Positions 4,085-52,125 of a stretch of DNA of 64,000 nucleotides are shown here, in pieces (within the stretch, counting starts at the first letter, position 1; each line of letters starts with the position of its first letter). Both the position numbers and the translations under genes were made by a program. The DNA is from an uncultured Acidobacteriota bacterium (GTDB lineage Bacteria > Acidobacteriota > Terriglobia > Acidiferrales > UBA7541): NCBI GenBank assembly GCA_963730495.1, contig CAVSSD010000016.1, forward strand, positions 89,076 to 153,075. Reading direction: 5' to 3'. Below the pieces are notes generated by a model that did no database searches, was not told where the DNA came from, and saw nothing but the letters and a program-made list of their open reading frames with translations.

Positions 4085-5989
4085 TCAAATAGCTAATGTA
4101 AGTGTAAGACCGCAAGCGCGCTGACGGAAACGCTTTTTACTCTCAATTGAGTCCCGCGAAACACCGCGGAGTAGCGATTTGGAGTGCGGCAGCTCTGCTG
4201 CCGCTTTTACCACCGACCGTGCAACTCCAAATTTGGCGAGCCTAAGAAAGTTTATTTCTTCAAGTGGCGGAGCCGGATAATCCGGCAACTTATCTTTGCT
4301 AGTGTCCGCGCGCTTCACTTCGAGTTCATCAAATAACAGCGAGGGGCAAATAATGGTCGTAGGCACGCCGCCGCTGCGGTTGCTAACAAGCGGATCATTT
4401 CCAACAGCAATTAGATTGCTACGCAAAGCGCGAACGTCGAGCTCGCTAAACACAGCCCCGCGAACCAATTCCTCATGCCCATCCGCATAAACGCGATACA
4501 AAAGCCGTGGAGAATTGCCCGGTCCGAGCGTGTCCACACGATAGGCGTAAGGCTTGCCCTGCTCGGTCACCATCTGAAGTATTTTCTTCTTGAGTTCTTC
4601 GGGAGACTGCGCTTCCGCACTCTTCAAAAGCAGCACACCCAGGCTCGCAGAAGGGAAGGATCCGGGAGCGGCGCGGCCGTGGCCATTCGAAGCAGGGAAG
4701 TCGCGCACCGGCTGCCGCCCGAGCAAATAATTGTTCAGCATGCCGCTTTCGACGATGTTGACGGTCTTAGCTTTTACGCCCTCATTGTCTATCTCATAGC
4801 TCCCCACCAAGCTGTGGCCTTGAAAATCTTTCAGCGTGGGATCATCGATCAGCGTCAGAAAGCTGGGCAACACGCGGGTTTTATAACTGGTCGCGAATGC
4901 TCCGACTGTGCGGTTCGGTTTCCCCGGCTGCGGCTTTCGGCCCACCACGTTGGAACCCACCAGCGAAGCGATCACATCATTCGCTGCATCCGGAGCAAAA
5001 AGAACCGGGCCGCGATATTCTTCCTCGACGATAGGCGCCTTGCGAAGAGCCATCAAGGTGTCGAGCGCCTGTTTCACGTCGCCGAGCAATTTATCGCGTG
5101 CGGGAAGCTCTTCTGGCCGGCCAACCATCCAGTAAGGATTGCGGCTCACACGCATTCCGTCTTCGGCTTGCGCGGAACTATTCAAAGAAAGGTTGTAAGT
5201 CGTCTTGCCGTTGCGCGTAACCGTGCCTTCGGAATCCACAAAGTATTCGTTGACTGCCGAAAAGCGCGCCGACGCGCTGACGGATTGAATCTCAGGATAC
5301 TGGCGATAAAGATTGGTGATGTCCTCGAGAGTTTTGCCCCAAGCCGCCTCATCGACCTTGAGACTAACGATAGGCTCCAGTGATTTGACGACAGGTTCCT
5401 TGGAAAAATCATCGACCGGGTTGGGGTCCGTGCTGAAGCGCTTCATTTCCGCTTGTTTATCCGCGAGCGCCTGGCCTGCTGCCTTGTAGGCTTCGTCGGT
5501 CGTCAGCCAGATCTGGTGACGAAGAGCGATGGGATCGTTGTCGAGCGGCAGAATATTGGTTTCGCCCATGCCTTGGCCAAAATAACTGTCCTGCTTGTAG
5601 TCGCCGACGCGCACAACCACGCGAAGAATGCGGAGACGCACGCGCTGGCTTTCGCGCAACGCGCCGAACGCCGCCTCTGCATCGTAATCATCCACATCGT
5701 TGACGCGGTATTCGATGTAATAAGGTGCCTGGACTTGTTCGATCTTCAGTTGCGCTTTAGAACGGTCCAGTTCGGTGAGAAGCGCTTCGAGCAAGGCATC
5801 GCCTCCAGCAGAGGGGTGCGGTTCCGAACTGTCCGCCGCCACCGTTTCCACCGCCAAGCCGTCGGACAGGCCCAGTTTTCCCAAAGGATTATTTGACGCA
5901 GAGCTATGCGTGGCCGCGCGAAGTTGAGCAACACCAAAGAGCAGCAAAGCAGTTAGAAGAGTATTTGTCATCAGTCGAAGAATTTTCAT
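4085..5989 (-). CDS. TldE/PmbA-like non-catalytic partner with signal peptide (true stop probably ~4252)
   Basis: DDPT..GSY..D.EG and SNGHGR TldD/PmbA motifs, no HExxH; removing one base at ~4262 gives PLKK-stop at 4252-4254, otherwise the ORF reads through a REP. Confidence 0.75.
   Translation of the reverse strand: MKILRLMTNTLLTALLLFGVAQLRAATHSSASNNPLGKLGLSDGLAVETVAADSSEPHPSAGGDALLEALLTELDRSKAQLKIEQVQAPYYIEYRVNDVDDYDAEAAFGALRESQRVRLRILRVVVRVGDYKQDSYFGQGMGETNILPLDNDPIALRHQIWLTTDEAYKAAGQALADKQAEMKRFSTDPNPVDDFSKEPVVKSLEPIVSLKVDEAAWGKTLEDITNLYRQYPEIQSVSASARFSAVNEYFVDSEGTVTRNGKTTYNLSLNSSAQAEDGMRVSRNPYWMVGRPEELPARDKLLGDVKQALDTLMALRKAPIVEEEYRGPVLFAPDAANDVIASLVGSNVVGRKPQPGKPNRTVGAFATSYKTRVLPSFLTLIDDPTLKDFQGHSLVGSYEIDNEGVKAKTVNIVESGMLNNYLLGRQPVRDFPASNGHGRAAPGSFPSASLGVLLLKSAEAQSPEELKKKILQMVTEQGKPYAYRVDTLGPGNSPRLLYRVYADGHEELVRGAVFSELDVRALRSNLIAVGNDPLVSNRSGGVPTTIICPSLLFDELEVKRADTSKDKLPDYPAPPLEEINFLRLAKFGVARSVVKAAAELPHSKSLLRGVSRDSIESKKRFRQRACGLTLTLAI
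4178..4208 (+). repeat. REP-like palindrome, family A
   Basis: Identical core to 84-111. Confidence 0.85.
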
Positions 5990-15299: not shown

Positions 15300-15610
15300 G
15301 CCCGTCGCATCCTAAACGCTGCTGCGTCGACCAGTTGAGCCCGCAGCGTTAAACGTCCAAGTGCCGCGACGGTTCGCTTCGATTACTTCTCGAACGCGGT
15401 TGCAGGATAACTTCCGTGTTGCCGACAAATAGGGAGTCAGGCTAGCTTGGAGATACGGATTGGGAAGGGCTTTGATGGAACTCAGCTCGTTAGCGGGCTA
15501 TTTTTGAAAGTGTCACGAGCGCTCGCCTTCGCTCTAAGTGGAAAACACCCTCCGCAACCCTTGGCGGCCCAAAAAGAGTAACTGACCATACTTCCAAGTG
15601 GGAGACAACT

Positions 15611-20379: not shown

Positions 20380-20857
20380 GTGCAATCTTTCTACAACGCT
20401 TTAGATCAACATGAACTGAGCTGGTCGCATCCCTCATTTGTGGACGAGAGAATGGCTTTTTGGTTCAGCGCGGTCTAGTGTCAAAAGTACCAAATGGCGT
20501 TGCCACAACTCGCTCGTCTGCACTGTAGAAGGCCCAAACCGTTTACCTTGCTTTAAGTAACGCCGTTACCGTTCAAGCGAAAGCGGCCTGATTGGCCGCG
20601 TTACCTAGACGGCGGCGCTCACTATTAGGGGTTTCCCTAGTTGTGATATGGCCGAGTGAAACCTAAAAATCGCTTTCGGGAAAGAGGCGCTCTCGACTCC
20701 ACCATAGATGTCTCTAATGGTGTCGGGGCAAGCGTAACCGTCTTTAAAACCGAGAAGGAAATTCCCTGTTGCTGTGAGCACTGCACTCTTTATCCGACCG
20801 TAGTCCACTGATATCCGCTCAGATGGTTTCGCGGTGCGGTGAAGAGTTGAGGCAGCC

Positions 20858-23222: not shown

Positions 23223-23519
23223 GGTGTATCCGGGTCAAAAGCCCCGCAGTCCAGAAACCGCGTTGTGGGAAGTTACCCGAGGAACGGGCCTGAGATTCCC
23301 GGACAGCTCACCAATGAAGCTATGATAGTCATTAAGCGAAGAATTAACTAGTTTCCCCGAGTGGAGCAGCATCGATGACGATAACGTGTGAAAGGGATTG
23401 TTCTGCGGGCCATAAACACCACCTTTTAAAAGAAGATTTATACTAGATGGTGTTGCGTCGACCGGTTGAGCTAACAGCTGTTACCGTGCAAGTCGAAATC
23501 GGGCCGACATTGTTAGAGA

Positions 23520-23545
23520 TGTCCGGTATGGCGACTTACCATGAC
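23520..23545 (+). repeat. 26-bp dif-like palindromic site, copy 1
   Basis: TGTCCGGTAT-GGCGAC-TTACCATGAC; 24/26 match to the three-copy consensus. Confidence 0.8.
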
Positions 23546-23643
23546 TTAGCGCGAAGCGGAAGATGGGGGTGTTAGTTTTGACAGTGCCAATGCCAGGGTT
23601 TCCGGCGCATGATGAGCGAGCGTGCTTTTTCCTAGGAGTTTAC

Positions 23644-24021
23644 ATGAAAAAGTCCCTAACCCTCCTCGCCGCGCTATTTCTATGTGTAACGGTCGCCGCC
23701 GCCGACTCCAAACCGCAGTCAGGAGACATTCTTTCGCACACTTCTGTCGCGTGTGGCACGAAGAAATCCAAGAAACAGGACATCGATCTGCTGTGCCAGC
23801 AGTATGTCGTCCGCTCCGGCACCACCGACTACACCATTCGTCAACCGAAACCCTCCGAACAGGCCATCATTCCGTTAAACACAGCAATCGAGTTCAAGCT
23901 CGACAAGAATAAAATGAAGTTCAAGGCCGAGGGAAAATCGTTCGAATTCATCGTTATCTCCCAGGCCGCTGCGTCTTCTCCCGCCGCCGCACCGGCCTCT
24001 TCTGCTCCTAATCATCAGTAG
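23644..24021 (+). CDS. Small exported hypothetical protein (two Cys)
   Basis: AGGAG RBS, signal peptide MKKSLTLLAALFLCVTVAAA. Confidence 0.75.
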   Translation: MKKSLTLLAALFLCVTVAAADSKPQSGDILSHTSVACGTKKSKKQDIDLLCQQYVVRSGTTDYTIRQPKPSEQAIIPLNTAIEFKLDKNKMKFKAEGKSFEFIVISQAAASSPAAAPASSAPNHQ

Positions 24022-24151
24022 CTCAGGAGCGGTCTTAGAAGATGAGGATGAGTGTCTTGGCGGCGCATCTTCCACCCTGGATCGCAACTCCACAACCAGC
24101 CCGCCGAAAGTCAACTCCTGTTAACGCCGTTATCAGAAACTTGATTCTCAT

Positions 24152-24177
24152 TGTCCGGGAAGGCGACTTACCAGGAT
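24152..24177 (+). repeat. 26-bp dif-like palindromic site, copy 2
   Basis: TGTCCGGGAA-GGCGAC-TTACCAGGAT. Confidence 0.8.
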
Positions 24178-24193
24178 TTGTGCCTTGGCAGTT

Positions 24194-24319
24194 TTAGTCA
24201 AGCGGAAGGAGAAAATGGATACCTACGTATACTGCGAACACGACCAAACCGACGATACAGATTATCAACCAGACCCTAACATCCGTTGACTCGCTAGATT
24301 TGCCGGACTGGCCCAGCAT
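24194..24319 (-). CDS. 41-aa single-TM small protein (not in ORF track)
   Basis: MLGQSGKSSESTDVRVWLIICIVGLVVFAVYVGIHFLLPLD*; purine-rich upstream region. Confidence 0.5.
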   Translation of the reverse strand: MLGQSGKSSESTDVRVWLIICIVGLVVFAVYVGIHFLLPLD

Positions 24320-24485
24320 AATTCCGCCTTGCTCCTACCTGTACTCAGCTATGTACCTCGAAAACCATCACTTAAAAGCTAATACAACTGCTTAGGTTCT
24401 CGTGGAAAGTGTCAAATATACCAGTACCCCATGAGTTTCAGCAGGGAGCACAAAAGGAGAGTAGGGGTTCCGTGGGAATTCCACA

Positions 24486-24511
24486 TCTCCGGTAAGGCGA
24501 CTTCCCAGGAC
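24486..24511 (+). repeat. 26-bp dif-like palindromic site, copy 3
   Basis: TCTCCGGTAA-GGCGAC-TTCCCAGGAC. Confidence 0.8.
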
Positions 24512-24677
24512 CTAGGCTTCGCACTGCTAGTTTTGACAATAGACTCGCTTCTATGAATCAGAAAAGATTCCCGCTGCCCGTATCCCGTCCGATTCCGATC
24601 CTTTTTTACGAAATTTGAGCAGTGGAAGAGATCGCCCAGCAAACAGTCCTACTTGAATACGCAAAGGAGCGTTCTAA

Positions 24678-25256
24678 ATGAGACTAAAGATGATTGCCTC
24701 CATTCTCAGCGTAGCCGTGGTGTCCGCATGCTTATGCTTTGCCGCGGACGACAATGAAGAAAAACGAGATAAAACCCGCAAGATGTCAGCCGAGGCCTTG
24801 CAGGATTTGTACAAGCTGGAACCTACTTCTCAAGCAGCTATCCAGAAAGCGGCGGGATATGCCGTTTTCGATAATATGGGGGTGAACGTGTTGTTGTTGA
24901 GCACAGCACGCGGTTCAGGCCTGGCCGTCAATAACAAGAGCAAGCAAGAAACCTTCATGAAGATGGGTTCAGTCGGTGCCGGCCTGGGCATGGGAGTGAA
25001 AGACTATGTAGTGGTCTTCATCTTCGAAAACGACAAGGCGCTGACACAATTTCTGAATTCAGGCTGGTCCGGTTCAGCGCAAGCGGACGCTGCGGCCAAA
25101 GCAGGCGATAAGGGCGGAGCTCACTCGGGAGCGGCTGAGGTTGCCCCGGGGGTATGGGTCTACCAGATCACGAAGAATGGCCTCGCACTTCAGTTGACCT
25201 TGCAGGGTACGAAGTACTACAAGGACGACAAACTGAATAACGCGGCTAAATCATAG
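24678..25256 (+). CDS. YSC84/SYLF-related lipid-binding protein
   Basis: AAGYAVF, G.G.G.G.KDY.VVFIF, GLALQ.TL.GTKY; signal peptide; AAGGAG RBS. Confidence 0.8.
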   Translation: MRLKMIASILSVAVVSACLCFAADDNEEKRDKTRKMSAEALQDLYKLEPTSQAAIQKAAGYAVFDNMGVNVLLLSTARGSGLAVNNKSKQETFMKMGSVGAGLGMGVKDYVVVFIFENDKALTQFLNSGWSGSAQADAAAKAGDKGGAHSGAAEVAPGVWVYQITKNGLALQLTLQGTKYYKDDKLNNAAKS

Positions 25257-25339
25257 CAGTAGGTCACCAACGGGGTCAGGGCAACGCAATTCTCTGCGAT
25301 GAGCACCTGCAATGCTGACTTGTCGCCTTTCTCTTTCCC

Positions 25340-25850
25340 ACTCATCGTGTCTTCATACTGCGGTCTTGTTGCAGCCTCGGGTAGAACTTTTTCGCTATGA
25401 CGTAGAAGCGCGCCGATTCGACGCATACCTACCCGGTCTCTCGCCAGGTCCTGTCGATTTTTCATTCGACCGCAAATGGATCACCTACGTTTTGTATCCA
25501 GAGATGACTCTTTGGCGAAGCAAATTGGACGGAAACGAAAAGATGCAACTTACCTTCCACCGGTTCGAGCATCTGGACCGAGATGGTCGCCTGACGATGC
25601 CCAAATCGTTTACACCGATTTGCAGTATGACCCTACCTGGAAAATCGGTTTGGTCTCCCGGGCAGGAGGCAGTTCGCAAGTTCTCCTGCAGGACGATATC
25701 AACTTGGGGGATCCAAACTGGATGCCAGACGGAAAATCCATCGTTTTTGCAAAATTTGACAGAATGGGCAAAGGAGCGCTTCATCAACTGGATTTGAAGA
25801 CCAAAGAAGTCTCCAGCATCTCCGATTCCGAAGGACTCTTCTCTCGAATT
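25340..25850 (+). pseudogene. Orphan internal fragment of a TolB/PD40-type beta-propeller
   Basis: DFSFDRKWITYV, PRWSPDD, PNWMPDGKSIVF repeats; no start or end, one frameshift. Confidence 0.65.
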
Positions 25851-30831: not shown

Positions 30832-32553
30832 TCAGAAGTCGTCCCACACATCTCCATACGCGTAAGTCTCGGCGGTCGCTATGGGATTAAAGGACCCTCC
30901 ACCTACAACCAGTACGCAGAAAATTCCATCCGGTAGTGACATCGCCGTTGCGGTGTGTCCCGCACGACCGAATTCCATGCCGCCTGTCTTAGTGAAAGAA
31001 TTGGGCGTTAGGTCGTAGAGTTCCGCCGTGGCGCTACTATTGCCGCCCCCAGCTATCAGCACAGTGCCGTCCATAAGCAGCGTCGCCGTGTGTAAATCTC
31101 GGGCTTCGGTCATTGACCCGGTAGGTACAAACAACCCCGGAGATGGGTTATAGACTTCGGCAGTAGCTGTGAGCTGCAAATCACTGCTACCCATAACGGG
31201 ACTTTCCCCGCCGGTGATCAGCACCGTGCCGTCATCGAGCAGCGTCGCCGCGTGTTCTTCGCGAGCCGTTGTCATACCACCTGTGGTGGTGGTGAAAATA
31301 CCTGTTGCCGGGTCATAGAGCTCTGCTGTCGAAGTTGGTATGGATGAATCAAGTGGGACGCCACCTACGATGAGCACTCTTCCGTCTTTCAGCAAGGTGG
31401 CAGTGTGCCGAAATCGCGCGACGGCCATGCTTCCCGTTTGAGTAAAAGCGCCAGTACTTGGATCATAGAGTTCGGCCGTGGCAGAGCCCTTTCCACCCAC
31501 TCCTTGATCTCCACCGCCAGCAATCAGAACCTTTCCGTTCGTAAGCAGCGTCGCTGTGTGCCCGCCGCGCGGGATACTCATATTGCCGGTCATGCTGAAT
31601 GAGCCCGCGCCGGGGTTGTAGAGTTCCGCAGTGTTCTGCGCTTGCGCACCCACGCCCTGACAGTCGGAAGTGTCTCCAAACCCTCCGACCACTAATACAT
31701 TTCCGTTCTGCAACAATGTGGCGGTGTGAGCGTAGCGCGGTGCAGCCATTGATCCCGTTGGAGTAGAGGCGGAAGCATAAGTATCGTACAGTTCTGCCGA
31801 AACGATACCGCCGACGCAACTGGGGTCAGAGGCTTTGTTAGCGCCCCCGGCTATCAGCACCTGCCCATTGTTTAGCAGGGTGGCGGTGTGAAAACCTCGC
31901 GCCGTTTGCAGACTCCCCGTGGGAAAAAATGAAACGAACGCAGTAGTTACGGAAATTGTGGCGCTCGCAGAGACCGTCGTGTCTGCTACGCTGGTGACGA
32001 TTACATGATAGAAACCTTCAGTGCTCGGTGCAGTATATGAGCCAGCCCCATTTATAACTCCCCCGCCTGCCTCCTCAACACTCCAGGTCACACCTGTATT
32101 GGTCAACCCCGCGACACCAGCCGTGAAGATCTGTGTCCCACCGGGAGCCAGCATGACCTGCGAAGGAGAAATCGTCAATTGGGACAGCTGAACTGCCACG
32201 GCAGCGATACCCATGAAAGCTGGATTCGCCTTACTCGTAGCCACGACATGGAACGTGCCCCAGCTATTTGGCGGAGCTGTATAGAGACCCGTGCTGTCGA
32301 TCGTCCCGCCAAAGCTTTCTTGCACGCTCCAGGTGACTGCGGTGTTAGTCGTTCCCGTGACGGTAGCCGTAAAAGCTTGTGTCGCGCCACCCAACAGAGT
32401 GACGCTATTGGGTGCGACCGTAACCGTTACGAGCGGAGCAGGTGGTGGGGCAGGCGAGATCGGTGGTTGCGAAGAAGTTGAACCCCCGCCGCATCCCCAG
32501 ACGCCGACTACCGCGGCGATAACCAGTGCAACAGCACTCGGATGAAACCTCAC
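30832..32553 (-). CDS. Kelch-repeat lipoprotein with two Ig-like domains
   Basis: Lipobox VWGC; two FTA.V.G.TNT.VTWSV Ig units; six to seven R..HTATLL..G.VLI.GG Kelch repeats; GTG start inferred. Confidence 0.85.
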
Positions 32554-32882
32554 ATTCGTGATTGATCTAGATCGATCAAGTGTACGTGTATTTTGCACGA
32601 TTAACCTCAAAGCTACGATCGATAGGATCAGAAAGGTCGCAACCATCAGAGTAAAAATCCGCCCGAAGCAGATCGCAAGTTGCCCTCCGGGCATCGCTCC
32701 GCCAACATTGGCGCGAAGCATCTTGAGGGGCAATGGCGGGGGCATGGTTTGTACCTGTTCTAGCTCTGATCGTTCAGCCCTTTGAATTCAGGGGAGTTGC
32801 AGGAGATACACGTTTCTTCCGGCACATATTCCTTCGACCTTGAGTATTTGGTGATAGACTCCCCGCAAGCTCGAGCCCTGCT

Positions 32883-51904: not shown

Positions 51905-51988
51905 GCACAGCTGAAGTCTGTGCCACCCAAACTACTTGACTACGGAAGGGCGTGGCGAAAAGTGGCAGCAGAGCTGCCGCACTCCAAA
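51905..51988 (-). repeat. Adjacent family C (51905-51926) and family A (51958-51988) REPs
   Basis: Match 44111-44135 and 84-111 respectively. Confidence 0.75.
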
Positions 51989-52125
51989 TCGGGTGACAAT
52001 CTTGCACAACCCTGGTCCGCGTGAGAATCATCAAACGAGATGGACTAGGACGCTGAGCTTGTTGGATGGGGAAGCCGACGCAGGATCATGCTTTTGCAGA
52101 GCGCCGCAACGAGAGGGATAGGGTT

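Follow-up and report, generated by a model that had tools for sequence, protein, structure and literature searches.

Integron-like gene-cassette arrays with the geometry of dif modules, and a probable integrase of their own, in a soil genus of Acidobacteriota

Described cassette systems and the repeats of the window

Elements that exploit the Xer machinery of their host, such as CTX phage, have two close, inverted dif-like cores with mismatched spacers. Elements of this type are also mentioned in PMC3025954. In integrons and superintegrons a tyrosine recombinase gene lies beside an entry site, and these systems, like CALINs, which are arrays without an integrase, form long arrays in which most cassettes hold one gene of unknown function, and many such arrays lack the enzyme (PMC8618304). 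The dif modules or pdif modules of Acinetobacter, chromosomal islands included, have cores of ~11-6-11 bp and are bounded by inverted sites, with two module types alternating (PMC13141974 and PMC12907356); PMC13141974 also describes crossover in the spacer, mismatch tolerated beside the XerC-like arm, fused modules and insertion sequences (ISs) that target the sites. Lastly, recombinases borne by IS91-family elements have been catalogued as integron-like (10.1101/542381). The arrays described here share with the CTX-like elements the close pair of inverted dif-like cores with mismatched spacers, and they share the above features of the integron group, the entry site being putative, and those of the dif modules, and an IS91-family element with such a recombinase is present and inserted in their core spacers. 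The reading that we favour, and consider probable from comparisons of DNA, is a chromosomal cassette array whose double-stranded sites are recombined by a candidate enzyme encoded elsewhere, a dedicated tyrosine recombinase of 315 aa. We thus regard it as a cassette system of integron-like kind that has the geometry of dif modules and, probably, an integrase of its own.

The window is the whole stretch of 64,000 nucleotides that was analysed (G000:C16:89076-153075) and belongs to genome G000, whose assembly is 5.85 Mb long and 87% complete. Other G-labels (G053, G074, G105, G111 and so on) denote the genomes compared and L-labels individual loci. The features of the array within the window are as follows.

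20549-20578, minus strand: core A0 (outer arm 20549-20559, spacer 20560-20565, inner arm 20566-20578)
23411-23471, minus strand: end remnant of an IS with an HTH_38 + rve transposase, which replaced the outer arm of core A1
23472-23493, minus strand: core A1, damaged (spacer 23475-23480, inner arm 23481-23493)
23501-23519, minus strand: end remnant of a 1.4-kb IS110-family element, the match in the window being read by eye
23517-23546, plus strand: core B1, which is copy 1 of the repeat (inner arm 23517-23529, spacer 23530-23535, outer arm 23536-23546)
23536-24167, plus strand: cassette 1, 632 bp, a gene module plus the A2-B2 connector
23644-24021, plus strand: cargo gene, 125 aa from the second ATG, with no Pfam or NCBIfam family
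24113-24142, minus strand: core A2 (outer arm 24113-24123, spacer 24124-24129, inner arm 24130-24142)
24149-24178, plus strand: core B2, which is copy 2 (inner arm 24149-24161, spacer 24162-24167, outer arm 24168-24178)
24194-24319, minus strand: ORF of 41 aa that includes a hydrophobic stretch and is intact in G105
24483-24512, plus strand: core B3, which is copy 3 (spacer 24496-24501)
24678-25256, plus strand: cargo gene of the next cassette, with a Ysc84/SYLF domain

The first-pass annotation had reported three copies of a 26-mer at 23520, 24152 and 24486, each matching its consensus at 24/26 positions and spaced by 632 and 334 bp. The copies and their spacing were confirmed, and matches in shuffles numbered 0/100. 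Likewise, TAGTTTTGACA follows copies 1 and 3, each interval holds one small ORF (23644-24021, plus; 24194-24319, minus), and no recombinase is encoded in the window, where profile matches to PF00589 and PF00239 were zero. The TAA and TTA inner ends ascribed to the sites are both intact in none of the three copies, which have TAT/TTA, GAA/TTA and TAA/TTC. The 26-mer had also been taken for the whole site; it is a real repeat, but it is core B of a two-core unit with an inverted core A. The odd sequence before copy 1 is there because the end remnants of the IS110-family and HTH_38/rve elements lie in it.

Core A0 extends the window array leftward, and its partner B has decayed. The centres of cores A2 and B2 are 38 bp apart, and the A partner of B3, lost in the window, is present in G074 and G053, which also hold DNA related to the 41-aa ORF in other contexts. 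The Atlas neighbours of the 125-aa cargo protein are unnamed clusters in which the commonest taxon is Acidobacteriota. A promoter scan of 23230-25400 stayed at chance level. Other repeats were seen in the window: three palindromic repeats of 31-35 bp, REP-like and unrelated to the cores, at 77-111, 4173-4208 and 51958-51991; a second partial copy, 74% identical, of the IS-end-like sequence at 23440-23493, at 15309-15362; and five to six repeats spaced by ~153-168 bp at 31046-31911, inside a 637-aa gene (30832-32745), which by eye are a Kelch-like protein repeat.

Anatomy of the two-core unit and the point of exchange

Read towards the gene, a core consists of an inner arm (~ACTTGTCCGGTAA), a 6-bp spacer and an outer arm (~TTAYCAGGAST). 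Among 443 cores, a count that like the flank-family counts omits own-genome duplicate loci, L125-L138, L159, L188 and L268-L282, there are two spacer classes, A (NNGCGT) and B (NNCGAC), and the four bases beside the outer arm are nearly fixed while the two beside the inner arm are variable. The invariance once claimed for all six spacer bases therefore fails beyond the window and holds only for the last four bases of the B spacer (CGAC). A and B stand back to back, inverted, across a short connector. Of 93 units, cores fused to IS ends being left out here as in the 433-core, flank-family, IS91-junction and TTGACA counts, 63 have their A and B centres 48-50 bp apart and 11 have them 38-39 bp apart, so that the two spacing clusters differ by one helical turn. 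G000 has 39 A and 47 B cores, ~86 in all, which lie in islands, against 2 in its reversed sequence, although this count for G000 is partly circular because the site matrices were trained on that genome. Ten arrays alternate, with 63 short inner-in A-B transitions and 75 long outer-in B-A transitions; long gene modules lie between outer arms (B, gene, A) and short connectors between inner arms (A, B), and the cargo orientation, as judged by a longest-ORF heuristic, is mixed (34 vs 41 of 75).

The phasing of A and B suggests double-stranded substrates. The first-pass annotation had offered a single-stranded hairpin as an alternative, and the A-linker-B unit could be conceived as such a substrate, like attC or the attP of CTX phage, since it is palindromic at the consensus level, its box lengths resemble those of attC, and unit 2 gives weak folds of -7.5 and -10.9 kcal/mol. 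We regard this as very improbable. The halves of the 93 units do not covary when compared with shuffles made within each genome (p=0.59 for the inner and 0.63 for the outer arm, covariation being an indirect measure of folded-strand use), the single-strand folding z-scores of the 26-mer are near 0, and just 108 of 433 cores have GTT at the outer position. The crossover maps to the spacer and not to the G|TT of attC, and the unit spacing clusters one helical turn apart also speak against it. The earlier statement that the sites are unlike attC is thus upheld. No IntI over the TIGR02249 cut-off was found in G000, and with 10 candidates scored in each genome 1/201 genus genomes has one; this sole IntI (L139, G159:C6:41823-42572) has no core beside it and no core or simple attC pattern within the surrounding 20 kb. 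Unlike integrons, the arrays have a candidate enzyme that is not IntI and neither an attC core nor a pairing signal; they would grow on both sides, their cargo is of mixed orientation, and both cores of a unit exchange. Unlike CTX phage, they comprise dozens of copies away from dif, have no pairing signal and have no matches in viral contigs, in which neither an exact core nor a relative of the 315-aa recombinase was found.

In G074 cassette 1 is 88.5% identical over exactly the interval 23536-24167 with unrelated DNA on both sides, and both breakpoints are at GAC|TT, in the spacers. The left boundary of this cassette lies at B1 in all six closest relatives, each with other upstream DNA, and the right end lies at B2 in only one of the six, the other five stopping at 24024-24107. 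By eye, the outer arm of B1 differs by 2-5 of 10 bases among these six relatives. In G074 and G053 the next unit, with the Ysc84/SYLF cargo, has other DNA before it and starts at the B3 spacer; these two genomes and G105 hold the same genes in shuffled order. The outer arm follows the gene-side flank in the 16 flank families compared (linkage 0.93), unlike the inner arm (0.32) and the linker (0.11), and all 21 of 21 pairs were of the same class (A-A or B-B). One degenerate outer arm stands behind a B spacer in G074, in L080 and in public run X8. In soil assemblies from at least 5 of 8 runs there are at least six loose ends whose match to the window breaks off at 23532-23541, near the B1 spacer, although the contigs concerned may derive from other sites. 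Judged from these alignments, exchange is shown to fall in the 6-bp spacer, and only A with A or B with B; the sites are almost certainly cassette junctions. In the assembled contigs of the 8 public soil runs neither the excised circle that had been proposed as a check nor a clean empty-site joint was found; the single joint listed for these runs has a 20-nt side.

The same observations bear on the proposal that the repeats are operators, structured RNA or REP-like repeats with no recombination role. TTGACA does occur within 100 nt of the outer arms 3-5x above background (3-5% vs 1%), but the enrichment is similar in both directions and few sites are affected. The 26-mer has no match in Rfam, its folding z-scores are near 0 as given above, and the spacer-located breakpoints together with the highly diverse cargo contradict such a reading, to which we give next to no credence. 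Neither the operator nor the hairpin offered in the first-pass annotation has thus found support, whereas its main proposal, integron-independent cassettes served in trans by a tyrosine recombinase, is supported: gene content varies between genomes with breakpoints in the spacer, and the sites are not attC.

According to the mechanism that we propose, direct-repeat cores of one class would recombine and so release a circle made of a module and its connector. Arrays would grow when circles insert at the lone B cores next to the recombinase gene, and this gene with its cores would be an attI-like platform. The A/B spacer mismatch would stop a single module from inverting, and the one-turn A-B spacing may let neighbouring cores help each other assemble.

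Insertion sequences in the cores

An IS91 element with a 297-aa recombinase sits in core spacers in G000 and in many relatives. Its four copies in G000, one of them partial, are:

C24:3787-6315
C19:423754-426293
C20:2709-5247
C9:244418-246456

This raises the question whether the IS91 transposase with its integron-like recombinase is the engine of the arrays and the cassettes its non-autonomous passengers. The left junctions of the element read CGT in 58 and GAC in 4 of 66 parsed, which are the two spacer classes, and its relatives are accordingly of a CGT type and a GAC type. The host arm scores as a core arm at 36/66 left and 36/54 right junctions. Moreover, the ends of the element carry the same inner arms; when joined, as they are naturally in the tandem copy L032, they form a long hairpin with a 5-nt bulge. 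However, genomes that have the element (n=66) and genomes that do not (n=135) both average 3.70 sites, it is absent from 11 of the 17 genomes in which there are 10 or more sites, and in 10 site-rich genomes no Y2 transposase was found, although the positive control was found in G000. The co-occurrence with an autonomous IS91 element expected of non-autonomous derivatives is therefore absent, and the cores are also the targets of three other IS types. Since its presence does not track the arrays, the IS91-borne recombinase was rejected as their driver, and it is quite unlikely that the element is their engine. Unlike the machinery of the arrays themselves, the IS91 elements here appear to be site-homing passengers.

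The three other types are two IS110-family elements and the HTH_38/rve element, which we infer to be of the IS30 family, and all insert at fixed points of the core. In G111 the target of the 1.4-kb IS110-family element is the outer end of the inner arm, and intact HTH_38/rve copies sit in core spacers there. A near-identical 1.65-kb IS110-like element is inserted at CT in the outer arm of cores at four places in G000:

C24:7928-9593
C9:166314-167979
C31:250500-252146
C21:271976-273622

Thus, four IS types, including IS91 with its recombinase, are passengers that have homed into the cores.

Recombinase candidates and the range of the arrays

The candidate enzyme came to light only by mapping cores around known recombinase genes; among 30 listed clusters of the 2528 ORFs within 2.5 kb of cores there was no recurring recombinase. 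Genes of the 315-aa family often have a lone B core on either side, facing away, and arrays run outward on both sides. Of 39 loci of the family, 18 are at >=74% identity, and 13 of these have cores no more than 1.5 kb away, as does 1 of the 21 more distant paralogs, the controls being 5/28 other recombinase loci and 2/29 XRE loci. At six loci a B core lies 83-90 bp before the recombinase start, facing away. Within 12 kb of 18 of these recombinase genes there are 101 cores, and 88 of them point outward, or 64 of 76 without G111. Shuffled arrays beside a recombinase gene and a putative entry site are thus found, as in an integron.

The 315-aa protein has PF00589 as its sole family match and is far below the XerC, XerD and IntI cut-offs (the IntI score is 38 bits against a TIGR02249 cut-off of 265), and its nearest solved structures are XerA and XerD. 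The catalytic residues R162, K189, H259, R262, H285 and Y294 are invariant in 10 sequences. A companion ORF of 115-119 aa lies on the opposite strand just downstream of the recombinase gene in several platforms (L261:2070-2600; G000:C21:299206-299563); it is possible that it is a directionality factor. An XRE gene beside two G111 sub-arrays is not diagnostic because this family is near-universal (192/201).

The family is found in 29/80 genomes without clear excess in site-rich ones, namely, 16/43 site-rich vs 13/37 at E<1e-40 and 10/43 vs 5/37 at >=74% identity. Many site-rich genomes do not have the recombinase, 5 of the 18 close (>=74%) loci have no core within 1.5 kb, and among B-B inner-facing modules found without a recombinase query only 1 of 6 holds the 315-aa recombinase. 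Loss of the enzyme from old arrays, by analogy with CALINs, would explain the arrays without it. G111 has a 67-aa recombinase fragment (98.5%) at the point where its array diverges, and in G000 the last 20 recombinase codons (95%) remain beside the companion ORF (C21:299119-299563), with no core left there; G000 also carries a broken 62% paralog. The window array is platform-less and CALIN-like, its assembly retaining recombinase remnants only.

One alternative is that host XerC and XerD, or XerC with a partner, shuffle the modules as in Acinetobacter dif modules, the 315-aa gene being cargo or a helper. Among the matches examined in nine site-rich genomes, no recombinase other than XerC and XerD is shared. 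The inner arm resembles the XerC arm of the genus dif (5.6-6.3 of 11), and the alternating inverted sites and the spacer mismatch tolerated beside an XerC-like arm follow the pdif rules given in PMC13141974. As in pdif, modules of two alternating types are bounded by inverted sites, and crossover falls between near-identical spacers. Against this, at most 6% of 433 cores have an outer arm that agrees with the XerD core TGTTA at positions 5-8, and the outer arm fits the XerC arm better than the XerD arm. In 201 genomes dif/array hybrid sites did not exceed a reversed-pattern control; the cores are nearly confined to one genus, and host XerC/XerD leave the fixed geometry of the platform unexplained.

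The host dif itself (C19:310872-310899) lies at the GC-skew maximum, separate from the cores. A dif was located in 58/121 genus genomes; in this genus its XerC arm varies and its XerD arm is nearly fixed. The conservation of dif is described in PMC3025954. The cores are not a single-copy site at the terminus, as a chromosomal dif would be, with ~86 of them in islands, nor are they 28-bp sites with a conserved XerD arm like that of the host dif. Of the dif/pdif likeness noted in the first-pass annotation the ~11-6-11 geometry remains, and in the comparison with the host dif that it called for both arms resemble the XerC arm; the XerD core is missing, so the sites are neither host dif nor pdif. 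Unlike dif modules, the arrays lack an XerD arm and have two fixed spacer classes and a genus-restricted sequence, one module type is reduced to a short connector between phased cores, and a dedicated recombinase gene lies between outward-facing cores. We therefore consider it unlikely that host XerC/XerD move these cassettes, and retain the 315-aa enzyme as the candidate. G000 also has a third Xer-like recombinase gene (C21:189950-191078, a 360-aa frame), which has relatives in G074 and G177 and is closely followed by a dif-like site.

We lean slightly towards regarding the arrays as a third class of cassette platform beside integrons and dif modules, with one Xer-like integrase, two outward-facing entry sites, bidirectional arrays of superintegron size and double-stranded, phased, two-channel (A/B) sites, in three quarters of a large Acidobacteriota genus. 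A literature search that was not aimed at the 315-aa family found no description of such a system. The arrays would be missed by both types of finder because integron finders seek IntI with attC and dif-module finders seek the XerD arm. With a named candidate enzyme, entry site, crossover point and two-class spacer rule, the mechanism is directly testable in E. coli, and an orthogonal two-channel recombinase could serve as a cloning tool.

The B pattern occurs in 150/201 genus genomes, with no control matches, and in 2/300 other genomes of the phylum as single matches; that sample has one other family member. The 201- and 121-genome tallies count the unpublished G081 as one member, and no claim is made on G081 alone. 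Whole units are present in at least 128 metagenome stretches. The cargo is diverse, 1950 of 2153 ORF clusters being singletons, spurious frames included. In G111, 69 cores lie in one 66-kb array; arrays of up to this size in one relative, and their occurrence in most sampled genomes of a soil genus, imply an extensive, overlooked reservoir of mobile accessory genes. The G111 array (L170-L173, G111:C16:1133358-1206719) is between a phage-type integrase adjoining a tRNA gene and a resolvase gene, and thus inside a genomic island, and several near-identical IS copies are inserted in its cores. In G102 there are sixteen identical 19-mers that resemble TAA-N6-TTA, probably the end or the target of a multi-copy element.
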